A DNA stretch of 54,604 nt from a virus. How positions within the stretch are numbered: the stretch's first letter is position 1; each line of letters opens with the position of its first letter. The stretch lies in the UHGV virus genome UHGV-0184235; one strand, given 5' to 3'. Position numbers and translations under genes: made by a program. Under the pieces are notes generated by a model. That model was not told the origin of the DNA. It did not search any database and saw only the letters and a program-made list of their open reading frames with translations. Positions 3,976-54,604 of the stretch are shown here, piece after piece.

Positions 3976-6942
3976 ATGAGTGGAACTAATCCTGTATTTT
4001 TAGTCCGCAAAGCAAAGAAATCATCAGGCCAGAAAGATGCAGTTCTCTGGTGCAGCGATGATTTTGAAGCGGCAAATGCCACACTGGATTATCTCCTGAT
4101 TAAATCCGGCGCAAAGCTGAAAGATTATTTTAAAGCTGTTGCCACTAATTTCCCTGTCGTTAACGAATTGCCGCCGGAAGGCGAACTCAGCTTAACGTTC
4201 TGCGATTTCTACCAGCTCGGCAAAGACAACATGACCTGGGTACAGATCCCCGGTGTTACGTTGCCCTCTTCTGAGACCGTTGACGCCGCCCGTCAGCGTA
4301 TCGTTGATGGTGTTGATACCGAAACAGGTGAAGTGCTGGAAGATCACACGGAAGATTTTGGCAATGAAGAAGTTGCCAATACCGAAACTGACGAAATTAC
4401 CCAGCACGAACAGGCGTCAACTGAAGACAATGACGATCGACCTGAACACCCTCAGTTAACCGTTGTGGCAACGATGCCCTTCCGTCATCGCGTTCTGGCT
4501 CAACATATTGGCGATGGCGAGTATCTCTATCATGTCGATGCAGAGCAGAAAAAAGCAATTCTCGCTCTGGAAATGGACACAGATAACTCATATGTCCAGA
4601 ACCTTTTACTTGCCGCCGAGAATGTTGAACCATTCAAAAAGGCCATTGAACACGACATCCATAAAGTGGTGAATGCCGTTAAGAATGTGTTTCCTGCCGA
4701 TGGCAAAATCCCTGAGCTGGCAAGCGTTATCCAGTTTCTGAAAACATGGTTCGATACCCCTCATATTGATCGCGGGCTGCTCGTTAAAGAGTGGTGCAAA
4801 GGTAATCGTGTATCAGCTATTCAGCGTACTGAAAGCGGCGCGAACGCTGGCGGCGGAAACAAAACAGACCGCAACCCGGATTATGTCCACACGCTGGATA
4901 CGCTTGATCAGGAAATCGCGCTGGCCACCCTGCCGATGGATTTTAATATCTATGAATTACCTGGTAGCGTTTATCGTCGCGCGAAAGAAATCGTTAAGAA
5001 AAAAGAAAGTCCATTCAAAGAATGGTCCGCAGCACTTCGCGCAACACCGGGTATCCTGGACTATTCCCGCGCCGCTATTTTTGCGCTTATCCGTGGTTCT
5101 GGTGACAACGTTCATCATTTTCCTGACAGCTTACGCAGATACATTAATTCCAACCTGACAGAAATTAATCACGAGAAACCGTCCGCAGAAACTCTGACCG
5201 CCGCCCGCCATGCACCAGAAAAAGACGCAGTGGAAGAAGCTAACCGCCAGCTTGCTGCTGAGCGCGGCGAGTATGTTGAAGGTATCAGCGACCCGAATGA
5301 TCCGAAATGGGTGAAGACTGATGCAGGTAAGCAGGAAGCCGAACCAGAACTGGTGAAAAAGGTTGCCGCAGGCATATTTGACGTTTCTGCTCTGATGCAG
5401 AACTCCTCAACTCATGGCACAAAACAGGAAGCGGAGACCACCAGCGATGTGCAGGTTCAAGAAACTGACGGTAATGAAGAACAGACTGGTGATGCGCTGC
5501 TCGCAAGCGAAAGTGATTTGGGGAATGGTGAAGAGGCAGATACCGGCGAGCAAGCCGATGTAGACCACAATCAGCCGGAAGTGAGCCAGAACAACGATTC
5601 TGCAAGCCATTCTGAGCCAGAAGCGCAACAGGAAGAACCAATGCCAGTGTGGCCGGAATACTTCGAGCCGGGGCGTTATGAAGGCGTACCGAACGAGGTA
5701 TATCACGCGGCGAATGGCACCAGTTCGACGATGGTAAAAGATGCCCGGGTATCGCTGATGTATTTCGAGGCGCGCCACGTATCCAAAACCATCCAGAAAG
5801 AACGCACCAAAGTCCTGGATATGGGGAATCTGGTGCACGCGCTGGCATTACAGCCTGAACAACTGGAAAAAGAATTCAGCATAGAGCCGGAAATCCCGGA
5901 AGGCGCGCTCACGACGACAGCGACGATCCGCGCGGTTATCGACGAACACAACGCCAGCCTGCCGGCATTACTCACCGCAGACGATATCAAAGCGTTGCTG
6001 GAAGAGTACAACGCCACCCTGCCCGCGCCATTACCGCTTGGGGCATCCGTTGACGAATCGTATGCATCATATGAGCAATTGCCTGAAGAGTTCCAGCGTA
6101 TTGAGAACGGAACCAAGCATACCGCCACAGCAATGAAGGCCTGCATCAAAGAGTACAACGCCACCCTGCCGCCGCAGCTGAAAAACAGCGGAAGCCGTGA
6201 TGCGCTGCTTGAGCAACTGACGATCATCAATCCTGATCTCGTTGCACAGGAAGCGCAGAAGCCACAGCCGTTGAAAGTATCCGGCACCAAAGCGGATCTG
6301 ATTCAGGCAGTGAAATCCGTCAAACCTGAAACAGTATTTGCCGACGAGCTGCTTGACGCTTGGCGCGAAAACCCCGGCGATAAAATCCTGGTTACCCGCC
6401 AGCAGTTGAGCACCGCACAGGCCATCCAGAAAGCGCTACTGAATCACCCGACCGCCGGGAAGCTGCTGACGCATCCGAACCGCGCCGTAGAGGTGAGTTA
6501 TTTCGGTATTGATGAGGAAACCGGGCTGGAAATCCGCGTGCGGCCAGACCTTGAAATTGACATGGGAGGCCTGCGCATCGGCGCTGACCTGAAGACTATC
6601 AGCATGTGGAATATCAAGCAGGAAGGCCTGCGCGCCAAACTGCACCGGGAAATCATTGAGCGCGATTATCACCTGAGCGCTGCCATGTACTGCGAAACCG
6701 CAGCGCTGGACCAGTTTTTCTGGATATTCGTCAACAAAGACGAGAACTACCACTGGATCGCCATCATCGAGGCATCCGAAGAACTGCTTGAACTCGGCAT
6801 GCTGGAATACCGCAAAGCAATGCGCGCCATAGCGAACGGGTTCGACACTGGCGAATGGCCAGCGCCGATTACCGAAGATTACGCCGAAGAACTCAACGAT
6901 TTTGATGTGCGCCGCCTTGAAGCGCTTCGCGTACAAGCCTAA
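3976..6942 (+). CDS. recE: RecE-like exodeoxyribonuclease VIII (988 aa) with a C-terminal PD-(D/E)XK (YqaJ-type) nuclease domain
   Basis: GAGGA SD. The C-terminal 260 aa carries the motif RPDLEID...ADLKT...E.K and precedes a RecT-like gene. The long acidic N-terminal region is not conserved. Confidence 0.7.
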   Translation: MSGTNPVFLVRKAKKSSGQKDAVLWCSDDFEAANATLDYLLIKSGAKLKDYFKAVATNFPVVNELPPEGELSLTFCDFYQLGKDNMTWVQIPGVTLPSSETVDAARQRIVDGVDTETGEVLEDHTEDFGNEEVANTETDEITQHEQASTEDNDDRPEHPQLTVVATMPFRHRVLAQHIGDGEYLYHVDAEQKKAILALEMDTDNSYVQNLLLAAENVEPFKKAIEHDIHKVVNAVKNVFPADGKIPELASVIQFLKTWFDTPHIDRGLLVKEWCKGNRVSAIQRTESGANAGGGNKTDRNPDYVHTLDTLDQEIALATLPMDFNIYELPGSVYRRAKEIVKKKESPFKEWSAALRATPGILDYSRAAIFALIRGSGDNVHHFPDSLRRYINSNLTEINHEKPSAETLTAARHAPEKDAVEEANRQLAAERGEYVEGISDPNDPKWVKTDAGKQEAEPELVKKVAAGIFDVSALMQNSSTHGTKQEAETTSDVQVQETDGNEEQTGDALLASESDLGNGEEADTGEQADVDHNQPEVSQNNDSASHSEPEAQQEEPMPVWPEYFEPGRYEGVPNEVYHAANGTSSTMVKDARVSLMYFEARHVSKTIQKERTKVLDMGNLVHALALQPEQLEKEFSIEPEIPEGALTTTATIRAVIDEHNASLPALLTADDIKALLEEYNATLPAPLPLGASVDESYASYEQLPEEFQRIENGTKHTATAMKACIKEYNATLPPQLKNSGSRDALLEQLTIINPDLVAQEAQKPQPLKVSGTKADLIQAVKSVKPETVFADELLDAWRENPGDKILVTRQQLSTAQAIQKALLNHPTAGKLLTHPNRAVEVSYFGIDEETGLEIRVRPDLEIDMGGLRIGADLKTISMWNIKQEGLRAKLHREIIERDYHLSAAMYCETAALDQFFWIFVNKDENYHWIAIIEASEELLELGMLEYRKAMRAIANGFDTGEWPAPITEDYAEELNDFDVRRLEALRVQA

Positions 6943-6954
6943 GGGGGAACTGTC

Positions 6955-8064
6955 ATGGAAAATACCAACATTGTTACAGCCGAACAGCAGGCACCAAACA
7001 CAATCTCTGCAAGTAACTCAATTTTCAACGTACAGGCCCTGGGACAGTTGCAGTCTTTCGCCGGGCTGATGGCTCAATCCGTCGTTACCGTGCCCGCGCA
7101 CTTGGCAGGAAAGCCAGCAGATTGCATGGCTATCGTCATGCAAGCCATGCAATGGGGCATGAATCCATATGCAGTTGCGCAAAAGACGCACCTGGTCAAT
7201 GGGCAACTGGGTTACGAAGCACAGCTTGTTAATGCCGTTATCACCAGTTCCAGCGCCATCCATGGCCGCTTCCATTATCGCTACGGTGGTGACTGGGAAC
7301 GTTGCACCAGAACCAAAGAAGTGACCCGCGAGAAAACAGGGAAAAATGGCAAATACACTGTAACGGAACGCGTTCGCGACTGGACTGATGAAGATGAAGC
7401 AGGCCTCTACATCGAGGTCGGGGCAATTCTTCGTGGTGAAAGTGAAATCACTTGGGACAAACCACTCTACCTGTCTCAGGTAGTTACTCGAAATTCGCCG
7501 CTGTGGGTTTCAAAGCCTGACCAGCAAATAGCCTATCTTGGGGTGAAATATTGGGCGCGGTTGTACTGCCCGCATGTGATTCTCGGTGTTTACACACCAG
7601 ATGAGCTTGAGCAACGTACCGAGCGAGAAATCAATCCGGCGCCAGTCCAGCGCATGAGCGTACAGGAAATCACTGGCGAGGTTAGTACCACGACCAGCGC
7701 GCAGGAATCGGCAACTAACATTGACGCCGTTGCCGACGACCTACGCGACCGCATTGACACAGCAAGCTCCGTTGACCAGGCCAAAGCCATCCGCGTGGAT
7801 ATCGAATCGCAGAAAGCATTGCTGGGAACCGCTCTGTATACCGAACTGAAGAATAAGGCTGTGAAGCGCTACTACCAGGTCGATGCGCAGAACAAGGTCG
7901 AGGCTGTGATCAACTCACTTCCAAATCCTGGCGAACCGGAATCCGCAGCGATGTTCGCTAAAGCTGAAAGTGCTCTCAGCACTGCCAAACGTCATTTGGG
8001 CGACGAACTGTATGACCAGTTCCGCATCACCCTGGACGACATGAAACCGGAATACGTGGGCTAA
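6955..8064 (+). CDS. recT: single-strand annealing recombinase of the RecT/Redbeta superfamily (369 aa)
   Basis: It lies immediately downstream of recE. The N-terminal core pattern (QWGMNPYAVAQKTHLVNGQLGYEAQLVNAV) resembles the Bet motif (QYGLNPWTKEIYAFP...VVGVDGW). Confidence 0.6.
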   Translation: MENTNIVTAEQQAPNTISASNSIFNVQALGQLQSFAGLMAQSVVTVPAHLAGKPADCMAIVMQAMQWGMNPYAVAQKTHLVNGQLGYEAQLVNAVITSSSAIHGRFHYRYGGDWERCTRTKEVTREKTGKNGKYTVTERVRDWTDEDEAGLYIEVGAILRGESEITWDKPLYLSQVVTRNSPLWVSKPDQQIAYLGVKYWARLYCPHVILGVYTPDELEQRTEREINPAPVQRMSVQEITGEVSTTTSAQESATNIDAVADDLRDRIDTASSVDQAKAIRVDIESQKALLGTALYTELKNKAVKRYYQVDAQNKVEAVINSLPNPGEPESAAMFAKAESALSTAKRHLGDELYDQFRITLDDMKPEYVG

Positions 8065-9614: not shown

Positions 9615-9887
9615 ATGAAATTAGTAACTCTGACCACCTGGGCAGCGAAGATTTATCCCGACAATCCCCCGGCGCGAGTGACCCTCAGACGCTGGGCGAG
9701 GAACGGAAACATCTACCCGCCCCCCGAGCTTCATGGGCGTGAATACCGCGTTAACCCGGAAGCGTTTTATATCAAGCCCAACAAAGCGGGAAAAGAGCTG
9801 CAACAGCACCATCCCAACGGGCGAACTGGTAAAAAAAGTGCGTTGCTGGAGCAGTTAATAAATGAGTCAAAAAAGATACGACGCTAA
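9615..9887 (+). CDS. xis: excisionase (lambda Xis-like)
   Basis: MKLVTLTTWAAKIYPDNPPARVTLRRWARNGNIYPPPELHGREYRV aligns with lambda Xis (LTLQEW...RWVRE..IFPPP..DGREY). AAGAGG SD. It overlaps the int start. Confidence 0.7.
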   Translation: MKLVTLTTWAAKIYPDNPPARVTLRRWARNGNIYPPPELHGREYRVNPEAFYIKPNKAGKELQQHHPNGRTGKKSALLEQLINESKKIRR

Positions 9888-10941
9888 TCTACCCAAGAAC
9901 CTCACCTATCGTAAAAATGACAGAGCGTTTTACTGGCGTAATCCGCTGACTAAAAAAGAAATTGCGCTGGGGCAAATTTCCCGCAGGGATGCGGTCGCAC
10001 AGGCGATCGAGGCCAACAACTTCATCGCGCAGAATTACACCCCTGTTGCGCTGATTGAAAAACTTAAAGGTCTGGACTCGCTTACTGTCACAAAGTGGAT
10101 CGAGCGCTATGAGGTACTGTTACAGCGTCGTAATCTGTCGGTGAACACATACAAGATTCGTGGCAACCAGTTAGCGACTATACGGGACAAGATGGGCGGA
10201 ATGCTCCTGGCGGAAGTGACCACAAAGCATATTGCTACGTTTCTGGAAACATGGATTGAAGGAGGGAAAAATACTATGGCGGGAGCAATGCGATCTGTCT
10301 TATCAGATATGTTCAGGGAGGCGGTTGTTGAGGGGCATATAACACAGAATCCGGTTGAGCCAACCCGCGCCCCAAAAATCGAGGTTGCGCGTGATCGTCT
10401 GAGACTGGACGTGTATAGAAAAATTCGTACAGCAGCAGAGAAACTGCCGACATGGTTTCCTCTGGCTATGGATCTCGCGTTGATCACTGGTCAGCGTCGC
10501 GAAGATGTTTCCTGCATGCGATTCAGTAATATTATTGATGACCGTCTATATGTAAAACAGATTAAAACGGGGATGAAAATAGCGTTACCGTTGTCGCTCA
10601 GTCTCCCATCCGTCGGCCTGCGCCTCGGAACGGTGGTCGATCGCTGCCGACTTGTGAGCAGGACTGACTATCTGATCAGCGCCGGGGTCAGGAAGAACAG
10701 CCCGGACGGGAGTATTCACCCTGACAGCCTGACGAAAAAGTTTGTCGCTGCCAGGAAATTAACTGACATTGCATTCAGCGAAAACCCGCCGCCGTTTCAT
10801 GAAATCCGCAGCTTGTCCGGGCGACTGTACAAAGATGCCTACGGTGAAGATTTCGCCCAGAAACTGCTGGGGCATACATCAGAAAACACAACAAAAATGT
10901 ATCTCGATGAGCGTGATGAAAAGGCGTATATGATGCTCTGA
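9862..10941 (+). CDS. int: tyrosine integrase (lambda Int family, 359 aa)
   Basis: N-terminal arm-binding domain, core-binding region, and a C-terminal catalytic region with HEIRSL...LLGHTSENTTKMYLD. Confidence 0.9.
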   Translation: MSQKRYDANLPKNLTYRKNDRAFYWRNPLTKKEIALGQISRRDAVAQAIEANNFIAQNYTPVALIEKLKGLDSLTVTKWIERYEVLLQRRNLSVNTYKIRGNQLATIRDKMGGMLLAEVTTKHIATFLETWIEGGKNTMAGAMRSVLSDMFREAVVEGHITQNPVEPTRAPKIEVARDRLRLDVYRKIRTAAEKLPTWFPLAMDLALITGQRREDVSCMRFSNIIDDRLYVKQIKTGMKIALPLSLSLPSVGLRLGTVVDRCRLVSRTDYLISAGVRKNSPDGSIHPDSLTKKFVAARKLTDIAFSENPPPFHEIRSLSGRLYKDAYGEDFAQKLLGHTSENTTKMYLDERDEKAYMML

Positions 10942-11003
10942 TTTTCAGTTTAAAAAATGTTAAATCTAATTTTGTTGTGGTATAAGGGAAAAAGACCGGA
11001 TAC

Positions 11004-11036
11004 GGAAATTCGAGGAAATTTCGAGGAATTTCGAGG
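11004..11036. repeat. three tandem copies of about 11 bp (GGAAATTCGAG / GAAATTTCGAG / GAATTTCGAG), candidate Int arm-type or Xis/IHF binding sites of attP
   Basis: Direct repeats seen in the sequence 60 bp downstream of the int stop, inside an AT-rich noncoding stretch. Confidence 0.4.
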
Positions 11037-11382
11037 GAAGATGCATAATCCTTTGATTTTAAAGGAAAATAAAAAGAGACCGAATACGATTCCTGTTATC
11101 GCCAGCACACAAATAAAACCAATGAATTCAATTAGATAGACACCACGCAGCGCATCTTTTATGCCCAAAAAACATCTTTTCATGTGCTTTTATAATCAAA
11201 TACATGCCACTTTTTCCGTTTTTATTCGGTGATATTTCGGTACGACACTCCATCGAAAGGGTTATCGTTCCACATCGTTGGGGAGCGGTAACACTGTCCA
11301 TGCATAGCACTCTTTGCCAAGAACTGTGCAGATCTTTTTTGGTAAAGTGCGTGGCTAGGAAATTTTTATTATTAGTTTTTTC

Positions 11383-12171
11383 ATGGTAGTCGTAATGAAA
11401 ATAACACGTAAAGAACTACAATTAATGAAAGAAACCACTTCTGATGGTTGCATCATTTATTTGTCTGGACCATCATCGTTAGATACTCCATTGGAGCTAT
11501 TGCGCGCCAAAAGCATCATCAGCGTGAACGGTAGCACAGGCTACTTACTGGAAAACAATATTCCAGTATTTGCATATATTGTCAGTGATGGTTCATTTTA
11601 TGAAAAAAATAAATCACTATTTTTAAAATACTCATCTTATGCCAGATATACTTTTATTAGTAATGACGTTCTCAAACGTGCAAACACTTCAGAAAAAGAA
11701 CAACTACTCAATACATGTTTTGTGTTAAATGATATCTGCAAATCACGGGGTGGGCCGGGAAGGAAAATAAGATACACAATAAAATCGGCAATTAACAGAA
11801 GTGTTTTTATCAAGTGTTCTGCATCAAGGAAAGAAAAGACAATTGCATTTTCCACTGATGTATATCATGGACACTTTGGCAGTGCAACGGTTGCATTTAG
11901 CGCATTACAACTTGCAATATCACTAAAATTCAGAGAAGTGCTTTTTTCAGGTTTAGATCTTAGCGGGGAATGTAAAAGGTTTTATAGCGAAGGTCAACCG
12001 CAACCAACAACCTTACCCACAGACTTTAATTTCATATTGAAATCTTTTGATTTTCTTATGAAAAAATATCGCGGAAACATTTTCAACCTTTCCAGTAGAA
12101 CTGCTATACCCTATGAAGTAATCCCCTTTGCGAGTGCAGCGGAAATAATGAATCAAACTACACTGGTATAA
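11383..12171 (+). CDS. AT-rich moron protein (262 aa), a putative CstII/DUF115(Maf)-like nucleotide-sugar glycosyltransferase
   Basis: Visibly low GC. The motif CIIYLSGPSSLD...ISVNGSTGY resembles the CstII VIIAGNGPSL...VFRCNQFY motif, and a later FSGLDLSG resembles YLSGIDFY. The family assignment is from memory. Confidence 0.45.
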   Translation: MVVVMKITRKELQLMKETTSDGCIIYLSGPSSLDTPLELLRAKSIISVNGSTGYLLENNIPVFAYIVSDGSFYEKNKSLFLKYSSYARYTFISNDVLKRANTSEKEQLLNTCFVLNDICKSRGGPGRKIRYTIKSAINRSVFIKCSASRKEKTIAFSTDVYHGHFGSATVAFSALQLAISLKFREVLFSGLDLSGECKRFYSEGQPQPTTLPTDFNFILKSFDFLMKKYRGNIFNLSSRTAIPYEVIPFASAAEIMNQTTLV

Positions 12172-12564
12172 CATAAGCACCTTGCGATAGACGTGATAAA
12201 TGCATCTACCGCTCCCCTCCATAGTATTTTCCGCGAATTTGAATCCAGTGTTCTGATATTATTTTTCATAATAATATCAGTCAGTAATAGAAGTATTTAT
12301 TAGATACTAACAGCAACCAGTCGTTTTGCCTATTCGCCATGCGTTGGATATCGAGCGGCCGGAGAAACCACTGTATGCACTCCCATGCGGCATGGTTACT
12401 GCTCTATTAATTCTACTGATGAAAACCTTGCCAACTCGATTGGAGATTTCTAGTTATTGACGCAAACACAGAACATGCAATCACATACGCTTCTTTACAT
12501 TTGGTGGTTTTTATGAATACTACTAGATGATTATGCTAACACGATGAGATCCAACGGATGAAAT

Positions 12565-12714
12565 ATGAATATATTTGAACAAACTCCACCAAATTGCAGG
12601 CGTTATGGCCTAGCTGCATTTATTGGGTTAATCGCTGGTACCGTATCAGCATTTGTTAAATGGGGCGCTGAAGCACCTTTGCCCCTCCCCAACCAGACTT
12701 CCCTGAGTGCTTGA
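12565..12714 (+). pseudogene. 49-codon fragment resembling the N-terminus of inner-membrane protein YagU (DUF1440), likely a host-gene 5' segment at the attP core
   Basis: The translation [40 protein letters not shown] matches my recollection of the E. coli YagU start ([40 protein letters not shown]), then diverges and stops. Confidence 0.4.
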
Positions 12715-12877
12715 GCGCCTAGTAATTGACCGATATGATGTAAAATTTAGTCTCCACACAAGGTCAACCTTATCGTATCTACTCCGTATTATGTATGTCG
12801 ATCAAGTACCGCGTTAGTGCTACACTTGCACTCTTTCAGAATTCACTGATTTTTCACATGTTAAAGCTATCTATCTC

Positions 12878-13264
12878 ATGGACATAAAACTGTCTGCGGT
12901 CTACCAAAATCAGGCCATTAGATACTGCATTGTCGGCGGTATGAACACGGCAGTCACAGCTTGCGTGATACTTGCCCTTACAGCCTCAGGCTTCGGCTTG
13001 TATGTATCTAATTTTTCTGGCTATGTTGTTGGGATATTGTTCAGTTACGTCCTTAACACATATTTTACTTTCTCGTCAAAGCCATCATTCAGAAGGTTGG
13101 TTAAGTTCATTGTATGTTGTGCAGCCTGCTACGTCATCAATCTCATAGCCATGAAAACAACTATAGCATTTGGTTTTGAAAATAAATATTTAATCCAGCT
13201 GGCAGGGATGTTTTTCTATACAATCTCTGGTTTTTTAATTAATAAACTCTGGGTAATGAAATAA
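12878..13264 (+). CDS. gtrA: GtrA-family flippase (128 aa, 4 TM)
   Basis: Small polytopic membrane protein immediately upstream of gtrB, in a low-GC region. Confidence 0.7.
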   Translation: MDIKLSAVYQNQAIRYCIVGGMNTAVTACVILALTASGFGLYVSNFSGYVVGILFSYVLNTYFTFSSKPSFRRLVKFIVCCAACYVINLIAMKTTIAFGFENKYLIQLAGMFFYTISGFLINKLWVMK

Positions 13265-14214
13265 TGAAAGCGCCTGTTCTTTCCATTGTTGTGCCTTGCT
13301 ATAACGAGCAAGATGTTTTTAGCCTTTGTCTTAATGAGTTATCATCTCGTATGAGTGAAATGAAAGACAAAGGGAAAATAGACAGAGAAAGTCATATAGT
13401 CTTTGTTGATGATGGAAGCAAAGATAATACCTGGCGATTAATAGAAGAAGCATCAAGTGACAGTTGTCTGGTGAAAGGGGTAAAACTTTCACGAAATAAA
13501 GGCCATCAGACTGCATTGATGGCAGGGTTATCATCATGCACTGCATCTGACATTACTGTAAGTATTGATGCTGACTTGCAAGATGACACCGCTGTGATTG
13601 AAAAAATGGTTGACTCCTATCTCTCTGGTCACGACATAGTATACGGAGTAAGGAACGACAGAACCTCAGATAGTTTTTTTAAGAAGTTTACAGCAGAAGC
13701 ATTCTATAAGGTAATGACCAGGCTCGGTGTAAGTCAGGTTGAAAATCATGCTGATTTTAGGCTGTTAAGTCGAAGAGCGCTCAACTCCCTTTTACAGTAT
13801 AAAGAACAAAACCTATATATTCGGGGTCTTATCCCCCTGATCGGATATCCGAGCGATAAAGTGTACTATTCTCGTCATGAGCGAGCAGCCGGAGAATCAA
13901 AGTACCCGCTCAGAAAAATGCTGGCTCTTGCACTTGAAGGAATCACATCGTTTTCGGTAACGCCATTAAGGATCGTAACCGCTTTAGGTTTCATTATTTC
14001 TATACTTTCATCAATTGGAGTTATATATACCCTTGCTCAGTATTTTCTTGGACATACCGTTAGTGGATGGGCGTCGATGATTTTGGCTGTCCTGTTTATA
14101 GGGGGGGTTCAAATGCTTTGCCTTGGTGTAATCGGTGAATATATCGGTAAAATTTATATGGAATCTAAGAAAAGACCAAAATTTTTCATTGAACAGAAGA
14201 AAGGATTTAAGTAA
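13264..14214 (+). CDS. gtrB: bactoprenol glycosyltransferase GtrB (GT2, DPM1-like, with 2 C-terminal TM helices)
   Basis: SIVVPCYNE...VDDGSKDNT...DADLQDD signature with two C-terminal TM helices. Confidence 0.85.
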   Translation: MKAPVLSIVVPCYNEQDVFSLCLNELSSRMSEMKDKGKIDRESHIVFVDDGSKDNTWRLIEEASSDSCLVKGVKLSRNKGHQTALMAGLSSCTASDITVSIDADLQDDTAVIEKMVDSYLSGHDIVYGVRNDRTSDSFFKKFTAEAFYKVMTRLGVSQVENHADFRLLSRRALNSLLQYKEQNLYIRGLIPLIGYPSDKVYYSRHERAAGESKYPLRKMLALALEGITSFSVTPLRIVTALGFIISILSSIGVIYTLAQYFLGHTVSGWASMILAVLFIGGVQMLCLGVIGEYIGKIYMESKKRPKFFIEQKKGFK

Positions 14215-15987
14215 ATGAGATTAAAAAACTTGCAATGCAGCCTTCCTTTTGATCTTGTGTATTTCGCACCAATTTTTTGCGGGATATTTGTAGTCATATC
14301 TTCTAATAAAATATTCAATTTATCACTAACTGACATTATATTATATGTATCTTCGTTTGTAATAGCGATTAGCCTCTACGTCAGGATCGCAATCGGTGCG
14401 AGCACTAAATGCAAATTAGGATATAACTCATTGTTCGTATTTGCCATAAGCATATTGATCATAACTTACGCATTGAGTTTCTATGACTCAAATATGAATA
14501 AGTATTTTAGCTTCAATCCAATTTTTGATGTTGATAATTATAATATTTGGCACAAAGATAGCGCTTACAACCTAGCAATAATTCAAAGCATTATTAACTT
14601 TGGATATCCAAGCATAGGATTAGACGGGCATGCATTGACCACATACCACGTATTAAGTCATTATGTAGATGCATTACTTTTAAAAATATCAGGGTTGCCA
14701 ATATACGAATCCTATGGGTTCTCATCATATGTCAAAGCCGTTTTCCTTATTTGTTCGATATATGTATTTTGCTACCAATATTCTAAGAATATAATATCCT
14801 CATCGGTCGCATTCCTTTTTATTAGCCCTTTTATTGTCGCATCATGGCATGCAATTAACTCTCATGCTCTATGGCTACCAAGCTTCATTCTTGTTTTTTC
14901 TGCGAGATTTACATTTAACTTCCTATACCAGTCCGAGGTTCCAACCTTTAAAAAATATAACATTATTGCAATAATTTCTGCGCTGCTATGTCTGGGTAAA
15001 ATATCAACTGGGCTGGCGTATATCACCATTGTATTTTCAGTAGCCTTTATAAGAGACTTAAAAAGCCTGAAGTTCTATTTTTATGCCGTCACTCTATTAT
15101 TATTTATTGTTTTTTATCAAAAAGTAATAAACTATTCGTATGGCATCCCAGCGGTTTTGGAACTACAAGCACTATCACCAACAGTAATTTACCATCATTT
15201 ATTAAATACCGATATCCGCTACGAGAAATTCTTTATTCCTTTTATCGCCGCAATTATATCACTGAGAATTTGCATCAAATCAGAATTTCTTACAAGGTTG
15301 ATCTTTGGAGTTATTTGTTCTTTTTCCTCAATCTTTGTCATAACCCAAACATTCACCTCATTTAACTGGAGCGATAAATATTATTTCTTCCAGGGGCTTT
15401 ATTCAGTTACAGTTTTGCTTTTTTGCTCTTATATTCTAACATGGGCCAATGCATCGAAAGAAGAAAAAAAAATAAAACATCTCACGTCTTTTGCTCTTAT
15501 TTCACTTCTTTCATTCTTTGTATATCAACCTGTATATTCAATAGCAAGCATTAATGCAAAAAGCATTGTGAGTAAATTTGAATACGTTAAAATAAAATTA
15601 TTCAAACCACATAAAACAGACGTTAACGGGAGTATGTATTCTTTAAAGCAATACGTATATCAAATAAAAGAAGGGAGTCACCTGAACAATAGAGATATAG
15701 CGTTATTCATCCCAAAATCCGTTATTCTAAACCAGGTAATTAAAATAAACGATGGGAATAAAAACTTCCATACCATGAATATCTATGCTGCAACTGGCAT
15801 TCAAATAATAAATGGTTTAATAGGAAATGAGAGGGCCTATGGATTGATTAATTATGGAAAACAATCAGCCCTTAAGGAAAGCATTGATTATAGTTATGAA
15901 TGTTCAAGGTTAGGGGTTAAGGCGATAATCACAGTGGAAAATTACACAGAAAAAAAATATCTATATCACCTGTGTGACGGCCAATAA
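14215..15987 (+). CDS. serotype-specific O-antigen glycosyltransferase (GtrC-type polytopic membrane protein, 590 aa)
   Basis: Large, very hydrophobic, low-GC protein in the third position of a gtr operon. Confidence 0.65.
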   Translation: MRLKNLQCSLPFDLVYFAPIFCGIFVVISSNKIFNLSLTDIILYVSSFVIAISLYVRIAIGASTKCKLGYNSLFVFAISILIITYALSFYDSNMNKYFSFNPIFDVDNYNIWHKDSAYNLAIIQSIINFGYPSIGLDGHALTTYHVLSHYVDALLLKISGLPIYESYGFSSYVKAVFLICSIYVFCYQYSKNIISSSVAFLFISPFIVASWHAINSHALWLPSFILVFSARFTFNFLYQSEVPTFKKYNIIAIISALLCLGKISTGLAYITIVFSVAFIRDLKSLKFYFYAVTLLLFIVFYQKVINYSYGIPAVLELQALSPTVIYHHLLNTDIRYEKFFIPFIAAIISLRICIKSEFLTRLIFGVICSFSSIFVITQTFTSFNWSDKYYFFQGLYSVTVLLFCSYILTWANASKEEKKIKHLTSFALISLLSFFVYQPVYSIASINAKSIVSKFEYVKIKLFKPHKTDVNGSMYSLKQYVYQIKEGSHLNNRDIALFIPKSVILNQVIKINDGNKNFHTMNIYAATGIQIINGLIGNERAYGLINYGKQSALKESIDYSYECSRLGVKAIITVENYTEKKYLYHLCDGQ

Positions 15988-16011
15988 TGTCGATTGCTAC
16001 GCTTATATTTA

Positions 16012-38753: not shown

Positions 38754-40082
38754 TCAGAATGTCGTATCGAGGGTGATGTCGAACGCTGTAGCGTTAACAG
38801 GGAACAGGAACACGATTGGATAACCACCGCCATCATTGCCGTGGTCAAAGCCGCCTTTCTTATCAGGCTCGCCTTTATCGTTATAAACCTGTCGCTCAAG
38901 GCATTGAGTGAATTTCGGGCAGGTTACCGTGTTAACCATCATCCTGCGCTCACCGTAGGTATTGCACAACATAGAGTTAACCGCATTTATCCTGTCCCTT
39001 ACTGCCGGGTTGCTGTCGTTAACCAGCACAGAGAATCCGGCATCATAGAGAAGTGAAATATCGGACTCACTGGCGTTGCTGGACTTCCGGTTTTTCCCCG
39101 AAGCATCAGGGTAAATACTGATTGTGTGTTTCCCTTCTGCATATCGCGTCTTAATCGCTTCAATCATTGCTGGAGTATCGAAAATATCCATAAACTCATC
39201 TACAGCGCGGGGAAGGCCATCACGCAGCACGTATACCACTGCCGCCATTTTCCCCACGTTAAAGTCCATGCCAATATGAAGCGCTTCACCAGGTTTAACG
39301 ATCTCATCAGTATGATTTTTACGGCGATCAAAGCAGTAATAGACAACGCCCTGATAGTTTTCGAACGAGGCTTCATATTCCTGCCTGAACGTTCTGGGAT
39401 CCATTCGCCGGCGAGCTGCTGCCAGCTCTTCAGGCGGGACATTTCCGCCGTCCACAGAAGTATAAAGCCAGCTTTTATGATCAGGTTCTCGGTTGTCCTG
39501 CCCGGCAAGCCATGAGTCATAACAATGGTTGAATCCCTTGGGTGTGCCAATTCGAAGAGCATGCCCGCCTATATACTGCACACCGTTTACGATATACCGA
39601 CATGTCGACAGCATCGGGCGCAATACTTCCTCCCACGCTGCATAGGGGCAATCCGCCCATTCATCCACCAACACGAAAAACAAGCCGGAACCACGCAAAT
39701 CATCGTAGTTATTCAACCCGACGCATCGCATTATGTGGCCGCTTTTGAGTGTGATCGATAATTCGGTCTCGTTCGGCTTCGATGCCCGCCAGTGTGGAGG
39801 TATTGATTGTTTCAGCCTCCGCCAAAAAACACGCTTTGCCTGTTTTTGGGTTGGCGCGCAGTACCAGATTTCATCCTCTACACTGACTTTCCATTTCTGC
39901 GCCAGTCTGGCGGCTCTGCGCATCTCCGCTTTGCCCAGGAATGTTTTACCAAATCGGCGACCACATACAGCATCCCTGAAACGCGCTGAACGCTGCCAGC
40001 CCCAGACGTAAATATTTGCCTGTTTCGGTGTCAGGCTGACGGCATCGCTATTAGAGGATTGGATCATCTGGAGATTCCTCAT
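38754..40082 (-). CDS. terminase large subunit
   Basis: N-terminal ATPase with a Walker A-like GRRFGKT, and a C-terminal nuclease region. Confidence 0.85.
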   Translation of the reverse strand: MRNLQMIQSSNSDAVSLTPKQANIYVWGWQRSARFRDAVCGRRFGKTFLGKAEMRRAARLAQKWKVSVEDEIWYCAPTQKQAKRVFWRRLKQSIPPHWRASKPNETELSITLKSGHIMRCVGLNNYDDLRGSGLFFVLVDEWADCPYAAWEEVLRPMLSTCRYIVNGVQYIGGHALRIGTPKGFNHCYDSWLAGQDNREPDHKSWLYTSVDGGNVPPEELAAARRRMDPRTFRQEYEASFENYQGVVYYCFDRRKNHTDEIVKPGEALHIGMDFNVGKMAAVVYVLRDGLPRAVDEFMDIFDTPAMIEAIKTRYAEGKHTISIYPDASGKNRKSSNASESDISLLYDAGFSVLVNDSNPAVRDRINAVNSMLCNTYGERRMMVNTVTCPKFTQCLERQVYNDKGEPDKKGGFDHGNDGGGYPIVFLFPVNATAFDITLDTTF

Positions 40083-51625: not shown

Positions 51626-51939
51626 GCTGATGCCCTCCCGTAAAATGCCAGAACTCGCTTCATCGCCGGGCTTGTGCGGCACACTGAAGTAACCATGTTT
51701 TTTCGCACGGTCGATTTGAAGCGCTTGATATTCAGTTCTCCGCCGGGCAACAGCGAATAGACCGGGTGATGCGGCTCGCCTGTACGGATCACTACCGCTT
51801 TGCGCGTCAGGTGAAGCAACAGGTTGTGAGATTTCTTGCAGTCACATCCCAGCAACTTCTGAACCTGTCTCGGCGTGATGGTCTGGTTTTCCCGAAGGAA
51901 ATCAACAATTGCCCACAGTGATTTGCTTGCCATCGTCAT
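51622..51939 (-). CDS. hypothetical protein (105 aa)
   Basis: Clean ORF downstream of the P-like gene. Confidence 0.5.
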   Translation of the reverse strand: MTMASKSLWAIVDFLRENQTITPRQVQKLLGCDCKKSHNLLLHLTRKAVVIRTGEPHHPVYSLLPGGELNIKRFKSTVRKNMVTSVCRTSPAMKRVLAFYGRASA

Positions 51940-51949
51940 TCCCCTCCCG

Positions 51950-52645
51950 TTAAATCAGCCCAGCGTCTTTACGCTGCTTGTACTTCGCCATTAACATCTC
52001 GGCTGGTGTTGGCCCACGATCCTGCGAAGGCGCAGCTATAGCGCGACGAACGGGTGGTATAGGCTTGCCAGCAAGAGTGCGTTTTTCCCAATCATGCAGG
52101 ATGTCGCCAGCGGCCCGGATAAGTTCCTTTTCGCTGAGTTGCCCCTCCGTTCCACGACGGCGCAACTCCAGGCAGACGTGGTAATACAGCGGGTTTTTAT
52201 CCCTCCAGGGGAACTGCTCACTCGTCGGATAGCGAAAAACAAGTTTCCGCCAGCGCCAGTATTCGCTCATGATGTCGTCCACACTGACTCCCAGCGCGCC
52301 ACTCCCTTCACGGCACCACGAAATAAACTGCCCCGGCGACGGCCAGAACGGTGACTGACTGGATCGGGCTTTCTGCATTCCGGCGGAAAGTTGCTCACGG
52401 GAGGTGATGCCTGATTCAGCGAAAGCGGCGATCCATTGCTGCTTTGCAACGCGAATATCATCGCCAGTACGTAGGTTCGTCTGAGTGGATGCCGGAAATA
52501 CCTGCATGAGATTTTCAAAAAGCATATCCACCAGCTTTTCAGCGTCACTGTTAACAACCTTACGGCCGTCGTAAGAATCTCCAGCCATGCGCGATAGCAT
52601 TTCGCTGTCGCGATTCTGAATTGCACGATAAAGATCCGGGGTCAT
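51950..52645 (-). CDS. lambda P-like replicative helicase loader
   Basis: PFWPSPGQFISWCREG matches lambda P PFLPSPGQFVAWCREE. The length is about 231 aa against 233 aa for lambda P. An ATGA overlap joins it to the O-like stop. Confidence 0.8.
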   Translation of the reverse strand: MTPDLYRAIQNRDSEMLSRMAGDSYDGRKVVNSDAEKLVDMLFENLMQVFPASTQTNLRTGDDIRVAKQQWIAAFAESGITSREQLSAGMQKARSSQSPFWPSPGQFISWCREGSGALGVSVDDIMSEYWRWRKLVFRYPTSEQFPWRDKNPLYYHVCLELRRRGTEGQLSEKELIRAAGDILHDWEKRTLAGKPIPPVRRAIAAPSQDRGPTPAEMLMAKYKQRKDAGLI

Positions 52646-53640
52646 AAAAATTTCTCCCATGCTTCAGCACTGTTCCAGTGCGGGCCAGTTTCGGATTTGC
52701 TTGCGCTGACATCTGCGCGTGGCTTGCGGGTAGTGTCTTCACGGTGAAGGGTTAACGTGTCCCACTTGGCACGGAGCTTTGCGGGGGAGAGAATATTTTT
52801 GTACCAGAACGAGTCTTTGCAGGCCCATCTGAACAACTCACAAATCTCTTTGTGGGTGCGTCCGTCCAGCTGGCGCATCAGGCGTATGTCATTCGCCCAG
52901 CCAGCCATGTTTGGTTTTTTCAGGGATGGTTTGGTGATGTCACGCAGTGCCAACATCCACTCTGCGCAACGGAGATCGTCAGATGTTCCCCACTTGTCAC
53001 CTTTCGGAGTCTGGACTGCTGCATCAGGAACAACTTTGGAAATTCTCTGACGTACATTAAATACGTTAGTATTTAATATATATTGTTCATGATGTGCGCT
53101 TGTTTGTGCGGATGTATGTGCGCCTTCATGTGCGCAACCTCCCGACAAACCCGCGCCGTGACTGGCCTCGCCATGTGCGGATGTATGTGCGCTTTCATGT
53201 GCGGAAGTTTGTGCGGGCAAATTGTCCATTTTTTGAGCATATTCGGCATAATTTGAGATCGTGATCACACGCCCTCTTTGCCGCTCCCCCTCAATGGAAA
53301 TCATCCCTTCGCGCACAAAAAACGTCAGCATTCTCTCAACAGCATCACGGCTTGTTGGGTTGCCTTTTCTGTCACGTAGTTTCAGGCCCAGATCGGCCGC
53401 CGTGGTCACCAGTTGTCCGGTTTGTAGCGGCCATTGGCGACCTTTAAAGCTCGCTGTGTATGGCTGGCTGGCAGCGCCCAAAAGCAGGTTATCCCACAAC
53501 GTACGCAGGTAAACATCTTCTGACCAGGGCTGCTTAAGTACACTCCGGTACAACGGGATGAATCCGGTCTTCTGGTTTTCCATCCGGTTGCTCCTGACGG
53601 CGGTACGCGCCGCAAAATCGGCGTAGGCGACATTCGACAT
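52642..53640 (-). CDS. lambda O-like replication initiator
   Basis: It lies immediately upstream of the P-like gene. Internal tandem AH(T/E)S tetrapeptide repeats are encoded by 12-bp DNA repeats. GGGAGG SD. Confidence 0.7.
   Translation of the reverse strand: MSNVAYADFAARTAVRSNRMENQKTGFIPLYRSVLKQPWSEDVYLRTLWDNLLLGAASQPYTASFKGRQWPLQTGQLVTTAADLGLKLRDRKGNPTSRDAVERMLTFFVREGMISIEGERQRGRVITISNYAEYAQKMDNLPAQTSAHESAHTSAHGEASHGAGLSGGCAHEGAHTSAQTSAHHEQYILNTNVFNVRQRISKVVPDAAVQTPKGDKWGTSDDLRCAEWMLALRDITKPSLKKPNMAGWANDIRLMRQLDGRTHKEICELFRWACKDSFWYKNILSPAKLRAKWDTLTLHREDTTRKPRADVSASKSETGPHWNSAEAWEKFL
53040..53215. repeat. putative replication origin inside the O-like gene, made of two arrays of four 12-bp-phased TGTGCG iterons with a flanking AT-rich stretch
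   Basis: TGTGCG occurs at 53093, 53105, 53117, 53129 and at 53174, 53186, 53198, 53210. The AT-rich segment 53040-53090 lies downstream on the coding strand, as in lambda ori. Confidence 0.55.
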
Positions 53641-53754
53641 AGCTATGCCTCCCTTGCCTGGTGTTTTGAAAAACTCTTTGTCATAATGACCTCGTGATTT
53701 CTGCCTGGAATTACACCGAAGGCCGTCTGTGTTGGCGCACAGCGGTCTTCACCC

Positions 53755-54297
53755 TCACATGACACCCGGCGCTATGGCCGCGATACCACTCAGAACCTGA
53801 ACGACAGCATCACCCGGCAACATATTCAGCAGATGCTCAATCCCTTCCCTGACCTCTTTCACCAGCTGATGCTTTGGCGCATTCAGCATTACGGCCTGTT
53901 TCGCCTCGCTGATTTCCTTCTCCATCGCTGCAAAACGCGTCATGAAACAATCCTGTCCGATAAGACGCCCACGAAATTCCAGCGGTAAAACAGCCAGAAT
54001 CGCCGGAGTCAACTGGCGGATGTTTTCGCGCGCATATCCGGTGTCGCTGTCCAGCCAGCGGAAAAGCTTCTGCCGCTTACGGCTCAGGTCGTCAGGAAAA
54101 TCCAGCCCGGCGCCGCCCTGCCGTTCCCATTCTTCAACGATGATCCCGGCAACTACGTCCTGGTTGTCCAGCGATGCCGACCACGCACGAACGGCAGCCC
54201 GAATCTGGTCATGCTTATCCGCCGGATCAGGCTGATTGCGATTTATCATCGTGTCCGGAGGAAACCCGGTATTTTGTTGAAATGAAATTGAATGCAC
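53755..54297 (-). CDS. YdaT-family protein (occupying the cII position)
   Basis: LTPAILAVLPLEFRGRL matches my memory of YdaT LIPAILAILPRELRHRL. GTG start with a GAGGG SD. Confidence 0.65.
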   Translation of the reverse strand: MHSISFQQNTGFPPDTMINRNQPDPADKHDQIRAAVRAWSASLDNQDVVAGIIVEEWERQGGAGLDFPDDLSRKRQKLFRWLDSDTGYARENIRQLTPAILAVLPLEFRGRLIGQDCFMTRFAAMEKEISEAKQAVMLNAPKHQLVKEVREGIEHLLNMLPGDAVVQVLSGIAAIAPGVM

Positions 54298-54299
54298 GG

Positions 54300-54533
54300 T
54301 TACGCCCTCGCTTCCTGCGCCGGTAATCCATCCGTTGGGTTCGGATACAGATCAGGGCGCAATTCGTGGGGAGTAACACCGGTTATGCTGTGAATTTTTA
54401 ATATGTAATCTGGCGGCACAATGCCTCTGTCGCGATGTTTCCAATGGCTAATTGACATACTGGTTACACCAAGTGCCATGCTTAGCTTTCTCGCTGAACC
54501 AGCGGCCTTAATTGCTTTATCAAGTGCTGTCAT
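54300..54533 (-). CDS. Cro/YdaS-like HTH regulator
   Basis: The KLSMALGVTSMSISHWKHRDRGIVPP HTH pattern and the first-gene position of the rightward early operon. Confidence 0.7.
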   Translation of the reverse strand: MTALDKAIKAAGSARKLSMALGVTSMSISHWKHRDRGIVPPDYILKIHSITGVTPHELRPDLYPNPTDGLPAQEARA

Positions 54534-54604
54534 TTTCTTCTCCTGACTATCAACGAAGAAAGTAAACCACAGATTTATATTTCAAGCAATATTCAATTTA
54601 TTGA

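Follow-up and report, generated by a model that had tools for sequence, protein, structure and literature searches.

The replication origin of phage lambda consists of iterons and an AT-rich tract in the O gene's middle part (PMC7466680). Its four iterons are imperfect inverted repeats of ~19 bp, each bound by an O dimer and placed 20-24 bp apart (PMC7466680). The Stx phages 933W and P27 have six iterons of the lambda type, and iteron number varies, lengthening the linker of the O protein (PMC7466680). In phage P22, an annotated rep_origin with repeats of ~20 bp lies inside gene 18, which encodes an O-like initiator with a lambda-like N-terminal domain (N-domain). In gene 18 of phage L, six imprecise 11-bp repeats were proposed as the origin (PMC8022706). 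For distant O-like proteins, the iterons bound are different ones and lie within each protein's own gene (PMC8022706). Here we analyze the virus genome UHGV-0184235, a stretch of 54,604 bp referred to below as the window, in which an O-like gene on the minus strand carries two arrays of 12-bp direct repeats. Judging from sequence comparisons, we consider it quite likely that these repeats serve as the origin for vegetative replication of a temperate lambdoid phage and that their cores are binding sites for O.

Results

Two arrays of in-phase repeats lie inside the O-like gene

A first-pass annotation of the window had pointed to eight plus-strand copies of TGTGCG at exact 12-bp phasing inside an O-like gene, where they would encode AH(T/E)S tetrapeptides, and had read them as an iteron origin. 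All of these particulars were borne out. The copies start at 53093, 53105, 53117 and 53129 and at 53174, 53186, 53198 and 53210, within two period-12 arrays delimited by Tandem Repeats Finder (53088-53136 and 53173-53216); they fall in a 332-residue minus-strand open reading frame (Table 1), and the encoded peptide reads ...AQTSAHESAHTSAHGE...CAHEGAHTSAQTSAHHEQ... On the coding strand, each unit is composed of an 8-bp core, (C/G)CGCACA(T/A), and four variable bases, which together give ...SAHESAHTSAH... The core CCGCACAT has no dyad symmetry, and all eight units share the same orientation. Counted on both strands of the whole window, TGTGCG occurs 25 times versus 40 +/- 6.6 expected, and eight of these copies sit in phase on a single strand of one 123-bp stretch. 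Since the window counts predict only ~0.045 copies per strand in a stretch of this length, a chance origin of the cluster is excluded. No additional clustered iteron copies were found elsewhere in the 54.6-kb genome, which has a single O/P module.

The position of the repeats within the gene is that of the lambda origin. Residues 19-131 of the window O protein match the full length of the Pfam profile Phage_rep_O (PF04492) with 68.4 bits (cutoff 28.7); the same model scores lambda O at 123 bits and P22 gp18 at 130 bits. The repeats correspond to O codons ~141-183, beginning ~10 codons past the N-domain and lying between it and a lambda-like C-terminus (residues 200-315). The four iterons annotated in lambda (39034-39118) start one codon past the Pfam domain, ahead of an AT-rich stretch and TCGTCAGAGAATTC (39160-39173). 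The repeats of the window are flanked on both sides by homology to lambda O and its origin. Position, order of elements, selection on the core and covariation with the N-domain, the last two described below, all support in silico the iteron origin proposed at first pass.

The layout is conserved among relatives

We compared ~140 related loci from phages and prophages. The O N-domain is present in 60 species-representative Enterobacterales genomes and in at least 530 IMG/VR contigs, 80 of which were examined. In addition, 69 phage records match the window N-domain at E <= 1e-8 (tblastn); phage L is absent from these 69. Carriers include phages CUS-3, Kapi1 and HF4s, a set of Stx2a-converting phages, Yersinia phages and Klebsiella temperate phages, as well as prophages of Citrobacter, Enterobacter, Yersinia, Xenorhabdus and others.

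Spacing between cores is nearly uniform in loci with the CGCACA core (hereafter type A). Among the 24 such loci from genomes and phages, cores are spaced 12,12,45,12,12 in 15 cases and 12,12,12,45,12,12,12 in seven; the remaining two have one extra or one degenerate core each. The corresponding numbers for 37 IMG/VR loci are 16 and 18, with three others, two of which have one degenerate core and one an expanded 6+5 array. Klebsiella phages (2b LV-2017, Mulock and others) and several Escherichia coli prophages are only ~79% identical to the window at the DNA level, yet have TGTGCG at 12,12,12,45,12,12,12. The spacer between the arrays measured 37 bp in 21 of 21 type-A loci. Such an invariant distance is notable because this region encodes a low-complexity linker, where in-frame insertions and deletions should not harm the protein. 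Array size, on the other hand, varies from three to six units in steps of 12 bp (four codons). A strict rule of equal arrays (n+n) proved wrong, as the 6+5 IMG/VR locus demonstrates. Runs of identical GCACATGAAGCC in this locus (L153) suggest slippage. Two further loci depart from the common form: L068 has three arrays in an 81-bp super-repeat, and in L039, probably a decayed prophage, the O gene is cut off past the first array.

Distant relatives of the N-domain (45-50% identity) keep the same succession of 12-bp units, central spacer, second array, GAACA(A/G) and AT tract. Their cores (for example CCGATGAACCA, GTCGAA and GGTAACAAA) are unrelated to that of the window, and so are the encoded peptides. 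The spacer motif (consensus CCAGTAATGGCGCGG / CCAGTAATGGCGCGGCTT, peptide S-N-G-A-A) is kept even in relatives with unrelated iterons, and synonymous variants of it are present among loci (spacers of L001-L159).

The core is selected at the DNA level

Type-A units allow codon usage in the core to be compared with that of the adjoining N-domain. In all 160 units, the codon preceding the core Ala ends in C, although it encodes any of P, A, G, T, S (both TCC and AGC), N, C, V or Y, and the core Ala is GCA in 160 of 160. In the N-domains of the same loci, GCA accounts for 26% of Ala codons and C for 27% of third bases, and codons for conserved residues are identical in just 51% of pairwise comparisons. 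The four bases between cores vary freely. Compared between the two arrays, these inter-core bases are not consistently homogenized, as concerted evolution would require (identity 0.08-0.92 within loci versus 0.46 between loci). The core is under nucleotide-level, not amino-acid-level, selection; the AH(T/E)S peptides arise secondarily, from DNA sites that are read in frame.

A sister type of core, CCG(C/A)GCAT (CCGCGCAT; type B), is one synonymous base apart from type A (GCG versus GCA, both Ala). The two types thus specify the same Ala-His peptide, yet each unit in a locus has the base of its type. These observations bear on a purely protein-level explanation, according to which the His/Ala-rich tetrapeptide is a flexible or metal-binding linker of O and the DNA periodicity a side effect. 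The repeats are indeed in frame, encode AH(E/T)(A/S) and occupy a region that links two domains. Under this explanation, however, neither the invariant third base next to a residue that varies over nine alternatives nor the single Ala codon would be expected; Ala is replaceable by Glu (GAG) in type B, the synonymous base separating the types is fixed across the units of a locus, and distant relatives retain the 12-bp layout with the unrelated peptides PDEPCDKPSD and VTNEVTNQ. We regard a role at the protein level alone as extremely unlikely.

Core type covaries with the N-domain of O

A rule linking core type to residue 99 of O was derived on the genomes and phages, where type-A loci have Asp at this position (24 of 24) and type-B loci have His (29 of 29), and was then tested on the IMG/VR loci. 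It held for all of them (Asp in 37/37 type A, His in 43/43 type B, one of the type-B loci, L108, being assigned by inspection), so that Asp is found in 61 type-A and His in 72 type-B loci without exception. At residue 81, type-A proteins have Ala or Pro and type-B proteins Ser or Thr; the types are told apart nearly as well by residues 116, 117 and 124. The candidate specificity residues of the window O protein are thus A81, D99, I116, E117 and R124. More distant N-domains have Gln or Lys at residue 99 together with quite different 12-bp repeats in the same layout.

An AlphaFold2 model of the N-domain, built with 35 homologues, has a mean pLDDT of 73.5 (~80-90 in the folded core), with residues 1-27 disordered. 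The predicted fold is a single winged helix with a helix at 43-58, three short strands, helices at 81-87 and 98-111 and a beta-hairpin wing at 114-119/123-128. The best fold matches in PDB are all winged-helix DNA binders (CRP, CodY, ArsR/HlyU, MarR, Fur and TubR), and all are weak (E >= 9e-3). In this model, residue 99 starts the predicted recognition helix 3 (98-111), residue 81 starts helix 2, and residues 116, 117 and 124 are in the wing; the covarying residues would therefore lie in the parts that usually contact DNA. Pairing of Asp with A:T and of His with G:C would also be chemically sensible in terms of general amino acid-base contacts. The window N-domain itself is a mosaic: residues 1-58 resemble type B (84% versus 70% for type A), whereas residues 59-112 resemble type A (77% versus 67% for type B). 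Since the window iterons are of type A, this places the specificity determinants in the second half of the domain.

Covariation with O also bears on the identity of the binder. The repeats might instead be bound by DnaA or another host factor, or by a phage protein other than O, for instance the small winged-helix product encoded downstream of P: TGTGCGGAT loosely resembles the DnaA box TGTGGATAA, and counterparts of the 105-residue gene after P are annotated as winged-helix/MarR-type proteins. The core, however, changes among phage lineages that infect the same hosts and follows the O N-domain, the variable 4 bp between cores break any match to a DnaA box, and CUS-3-type loci retain the repeats beside different neighbor genes. 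A binder other than O is therefore highly unlikely.

An AT-rich tract and a lambda-like box adjoin the second array

The first-pass annotation had described a 50-bp AT-rich flank that reached 53040. An AT-rich tract is present, but only ~40 bp (53054-53091) are strictly AT-rich, and the bases below it, down to 53040, form a conserved box rather than a simply AT-rich sequence. GC fraction in 40-bp stretches falls to 0.175-0.20 at 53050-53095, which is the minimum of the gene and is reached by only 0.15% of the 40-bp stretches of the window. With respect to O transcription, the tract comes immediately downstream of the iterons. It holds a 12-nt inverted repeat (53053-53064 / 53069-53080), and the corresponding hairpin is not significant alone (z = -1.65). 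Another 12-nt inverted repeat, CATCAGGAACAA / TTGTTCATGATG, brackets the tract (53022-53033 / 53083-53094, 11 of 12 positions complementary); both of its arms are also coding-constrained (VVPD and HHEQ).

The box at the right boundary, ACGTCAGAGAATTT, is kept in Klebsiella, Yersinia and Citrobacter relatives. A five-way alignment of lambda, Klebsiella and Yersinia phages, a Citrobacter prophage and the window has (T/A)CGTC(A/C)GAGAATT in common, with invariant columns; upstream of this box, the 12-bp arrays stand in place of the lambda iterons. Recombination junctions are annotated in the lambda record at 39157/8 and 39165/6, and junctions between replication modules are also seen among the relatives. 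The N-domain with its arrays is joined to a lambda-type C-terminus and P in the window and in Klebsiella and Yersinia phages, and to a P22-gp18-type C-terminus and a DnaB-like helicase in CUS-3, Kapi1 and the Stx2a phages; the junction lies directly past the AT tract in each case. The N-domain and repeats thus travel together, as would be expected if a module for origin recognition could be paired with various modules for helicase recruitment.

These junctions invite another explanation, namely that the conserved elements are mainly recombination linkers for swapping N- and C-terminal replication modules. It would account for the retention of CATGAACAA, the spacer motif and CGTCAGAGAATT across iteron types and C-terminal modules, for module junctions located right past the AT tract and for the lambda junctions at 39157-39166, while leaving unexplained the type-specific cores, the 12-bp phasing, the nucleotide constraint and the covariation with residue 99. 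As the main function of these elements we judge recombination highly improbable; the flanking boxes may nevertheless be recombination linkers, which is compatible with origin function.

The surroundings of the arrays also help to separate an origin from a control site. The repeats might serve in titration of O or handcuffing, in autoregulation or as a roadblock of rightward transcription, or in exclusion of related phages, with replication starting elsewhere. Plasmid iterons are known to act in copy-number control as well, and a bipartite array with a fixed spacer recalls some regulatory or partition sites. Yet the arrays are found at the place of ori-lambda, abutting both the most AT-rich tract of the gene and the box of the right end of ori-lambda, and the 54.6-kb genome has no other comparable repeat cluster or candidate origin. 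Moreover, lambda sites do both jobs, which makes control an added role more than an alternative. We therefore consider a control site with the start located elsewhere very unlikely, and an origin at the arrays remains our preferred interpretation.

Table 1. Coordinates of the O-like gene, its repeat arrays and the adjoining features in the window.
Feature	Coordinates	Strand	Basis or remarks
Predicted winged-helix origin-binding domain, O residues 20-135	53236..53583	-	Pfam Phage_rep_O and AlphaFold2
Gene-proximal (upstream) iteron array	53173..53216	-	four 12-bp units; same layout kept in relatives
Cores of the gene-proximal array	53209-53216 CCGCACAA; 53197-53204 CCGCACAT; 53185-53192 GCGCACAT; 53173-53180 CCGCACAT	-	
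Inter-array spacer	53136..53172	-	37 bp, GC ~0.70, encodes GEASHGAGLSGG
Second iteron array, adjoining the AT tract	53092..53135	-	four 12-bp units
Cores of the second array	53128-53135 GCGCACAT; 53116-53123 GCGCACAT; 53104-53111 CCGCACAA; 53092-53099 GCGCACAT	-	
Junction CATGAACAA, encodes HEQ	53083..53091	-	kept in nearly all relatives, any iteron type
AT-rich tract, candidate DNA-unwinding element	53054..53082	.	40-bp GC minimum 0.175
Right-boundary box ACGTCAGAGAATTT	53040..53053	-	12 of 14 positions match lambda 39160-39173 (TCGTCAGAGAATTC)
O C-terminal domain, residues 200-315	52696..53043	-	57% identical to lambda O 174-283
O-like initiator gene, 332 aa, with the likely origin inside	52642..53640	-	open reading frame and Pfam
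Lambda-P-like gene, 236 aa, presumed DnaB loader, overlaps the end of O	51950..52660	-	PF06992, 178 bits

Gene neighborhood of the arrays

By homology with lambda, the C-terminal domain of O would recruit P, and the window P protein shares 37% identity with that of lambda. O itself is preceded by YdaT-like and YdaS/Cro-like genes. The 105-residue gene that follows P has no Pfam match; its counterparts in a Klebsiella phage and in E. coli relatives are those annotated as winged-helix/MarR-type DNA-binding proteins. A partial O protein that is 99% identical to that of the window is labeled Citrobacter koseri. Most database homologues of the O N-domain (P0001-P0059) are likewise "partial" proteins of ~110-210 residues, which implies that contigs often end at or just past the origin region; co-resident prophages sharing the downstream C-terminal module are the likely cause. 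An Rfam scan of 51900-54604 gave only two sub-threshold matches at chance level and thus no RNA explanation. One of them, in the YdaT-O intergenic region (53695-53754, plus strand), is to the P22 sar antisense RNA (20.5 bits versus a gathering threshold of 43, E = 0.76) and, although located at the place of oop in lambda, is probably due to chance. A scan for promoters and terminators yielded nothing beyond shuffled expectation.

Genome context

The window corresponds to the complete 54,604-bp genome of a temperate phage in circularly permuted form. In three contigs of chromosomal origin (L075-L077, each larger than 1 Mb) that encode the identical O protein, the sequence passes from window position 54541 directly to position 37, and because of this permutation the cI-like repressor gene (HTH_3), located just past the window end, is found at the window start. 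Many chromosomal contigs encode the identical O protein, for which the index of the sequence collection lists 595 blocks.

We also looked for natural plasmids that have this module as their only replicon. About 20 small circular "plasmid" records of Salmonella Infantis, all from one project, carry cI-cro-cII and an O gene truncated right past the origin (for example L078, NZ_CP148879.1, 5555 bp, and L079, NZ_CP148834.1, 5872 bp). In these records O breaks off after CCCCCCTACCCCCCAATGGGGG, where the same left-arm sequence, CAATGCGGAATCACAG, is attached; type-A iterons are present in one record, and iterons of the CCGATGAACCA type in the others. They may be real origin-bearing mini-circles or a recurrent assembly artifact, and we do not count them as evidence.

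The genome combines a Rac-like recombination module, early genes of the YdaS/YdaT type and the lambda-type O/P module. The recombination module (3976-8064) encodes RecE (exonuclease VIII, 988 residues) and RecT, and its strand is the opposite of that used by the replication and structural genes. A low-GC island (11000-16000; 32-41% versus 50% overall) separates the integrase gene (9862-10941) from the tail-fiber genes. Of the ten 40-bp stretches with the highest AT content in the window, nine fall within this island. Encoded there are a family-2 glycosyltransferase (13264-14214), an MptE-like protein that scores below the Pfam cutoff and a 590-residue protein with no Pfam match; the island may be cargo for modification of surface polysaccharides. 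Three tandem 11-bp units (GGAATTTCGAG) at 11004-11039, ~60 bp past the end of the integrase gene, may be arm-type sites for Int or part of attP.

Discussion

The first-pass annotation had equated the repeats with the architecture of the lambda origin built from a shorter unit. As to place and order of elements the comparison is sound: in both cases the sites come right past the Phage_rep_O N-domain and are followed by an AT tract of ~40 bp and then by the box (T/A)CGTCAGAGAATT, the C-terminal domains of O are homologous, and the P gene lies downstream. It does not extend to the sites themselves. Instead of imperfect inverted repeats bound by dimers, the window has 12-bp direct repeats with an asymmetric 8-bp core and no dyad, which form, in this type of locus, two arrays of 3-6 units on either side of a fixed 37-bp spacer. 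Furthermore, the N-domains are only remotely related, and the AT tract of the window is palindromic, not purine-skewed. Four or more iterons of ~19 bp with an internal dyad, the hallmark of the lambda type, are not found in the window, and since this unit is missing, the locus does not belong to the ori-lambda iteron family in the strict sense. It does share the general features of iteron origins, namely in-phase direct repeats, an adjoining AT-rich element and a winged-helix initiator, as predicted here, encoded in cis.

Other described origins differ from the window type in comparable ways. In 933W and P27 the number of units is variable, as it is here, but these phages have palindromic 19-bp iterons with a lambda-type N-domain, and it is a different set of Stx2a phages that carries the 12-bp type. 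P22 resembles the window in having an origin inside an O-like gene and differs from it in its lambda-like N-domain. The 11-bp repeats of phage L provide a published precedent for O-type origins with short units (PMC8022706), although the phage L repeat, TGTCCAACGGA, is unrelated to the window core; neither P22 nor phage L has been described as having two arrays around a fixed spacer.

Outside O-type origins, plasmid Rep/iteron replicons use units of ~17-22 bp (two helical turns) and a Rep monomer with two winged helices, in contrast to the 12-bp unit and the single modeled winged helix of the window. In the pho boxes of the PhoB/OmpR family, winged-helix proteins bind head-to-tail every 11-12 bp, and parC of plasmid R1 is a bipartite short-iteron site in which two arrays around a central spacer form one higher-order complex. 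The likeness to both is architectural only, as the protein families are different and the functions are transcription and partition. The principle of iterons and an AT tract inside O is textbook knowledge, and the layout described here is a widespread variant of it for which we found no description. What appears to be new is the combination of 12-bp direct repeats of asymmetric sequence, their arrangement in two arrays of 3-6 units on either side of a spacer that is invariably 37 bp long, and repeat types tied to one residue of the recognition helix.

Binding, stoichiometry, unwinding and origin firing are proposed here by analogy with lambda (PMC7466680). On this model, the winged-helix N-domain of O would bind the 8-bp core (C/G)CGCACA(T/A) head-to-tail, once per 12 bp, with four sites in each of the two arrays. 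Direct repeats ~1.1 helical turns apart (12 bp correspond to ~1.14 turns, or a rotation of ~50 degrees between successive subunits, if 10.5 bp per turn are assumed) would line up the O subunits as two short, slightly spiraling filaments, unlike the O dimers on lambda's palindromic 19-bp iterons; 37 bp apart, these filaments would constitute the initiation complex. This nucleoprotein complex ("O-some") would strain open the adjoining AT tract (53054-53091), and the lambda-like C-terminal domain of O would bring P-DnaB to the opened DNA.

Several points weigh against reading the arrays as an O-bound origin. A description or experimental demonstration of this iteron type was not found in the literature, older subscription journals being outside the coverage; the papers retrieved were general studies of lambda and Stx phages and the phage L precedent. 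The iterons are devoid of the dyad symmetry of lambda sites, so the lambda binding mode is not simply transferable to them. Direct profile-to-sequence comparison of the window N-domain with lambda O gives no signal and the link runs via the Pfam profile only, which makes the window N-domain a remote subfamily of Phage_rep_O. The structural model is of moderate confidence, its fold matches are weak, and a PDB sequence search retrieved no solved structure of a sequence relative. Finally, physical linkage could account for part of the association between residue 99 and the core: only 50-300 bp separate the repeats from the second half of the N-domain, which is nearer to them than the first, and mosaic recombination would tend to move both as a unit.

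We are clearly less confident about the geometry of binding and the role of residue 99 than about the origin itself. It is possible, if rather doubtful as a whole, that the nucleoprotein geometry differs from that of the lambda O-some, in that single winged-helix domains polymerize head-to-tail on the 12-bp repeats in two arrays exactly 37 bp apart, and that residue 99 largely sets specificity, with Asp99 reading A and His99 reading G at core position 5 and with Gln or Lys matched to other cores. As part of the same tentative proposal, the conserved spacer might be a hinge or a site for a further factor.

Since its principle is textbook knowledge, our result refines, and does not change, the understanding of lambdoid replication. 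It pinpoints where replication probably starts in a module that occurs commonly in prophages of Enterobacterales and is carried, among others, by CUS-3, a phage that modifies the K1 capsule. It also provides an unusually clean case of a DNA-binding site dictating codon choice within a coding sequence. The correspondence between Asp or His at residue 99 and A or G in the core is a simple hypothesis on the diversification of initiators and origins, with a bearing on the replication compatibility of co-resident prophages; orthogonal replicons for engineering are a possible use. If true, it would amount to a natural, swappable initiator/origin code, under which prophages residing together, Stx2a-converting and Klebsiella phages among them, would have several mutually orthogonal origins.

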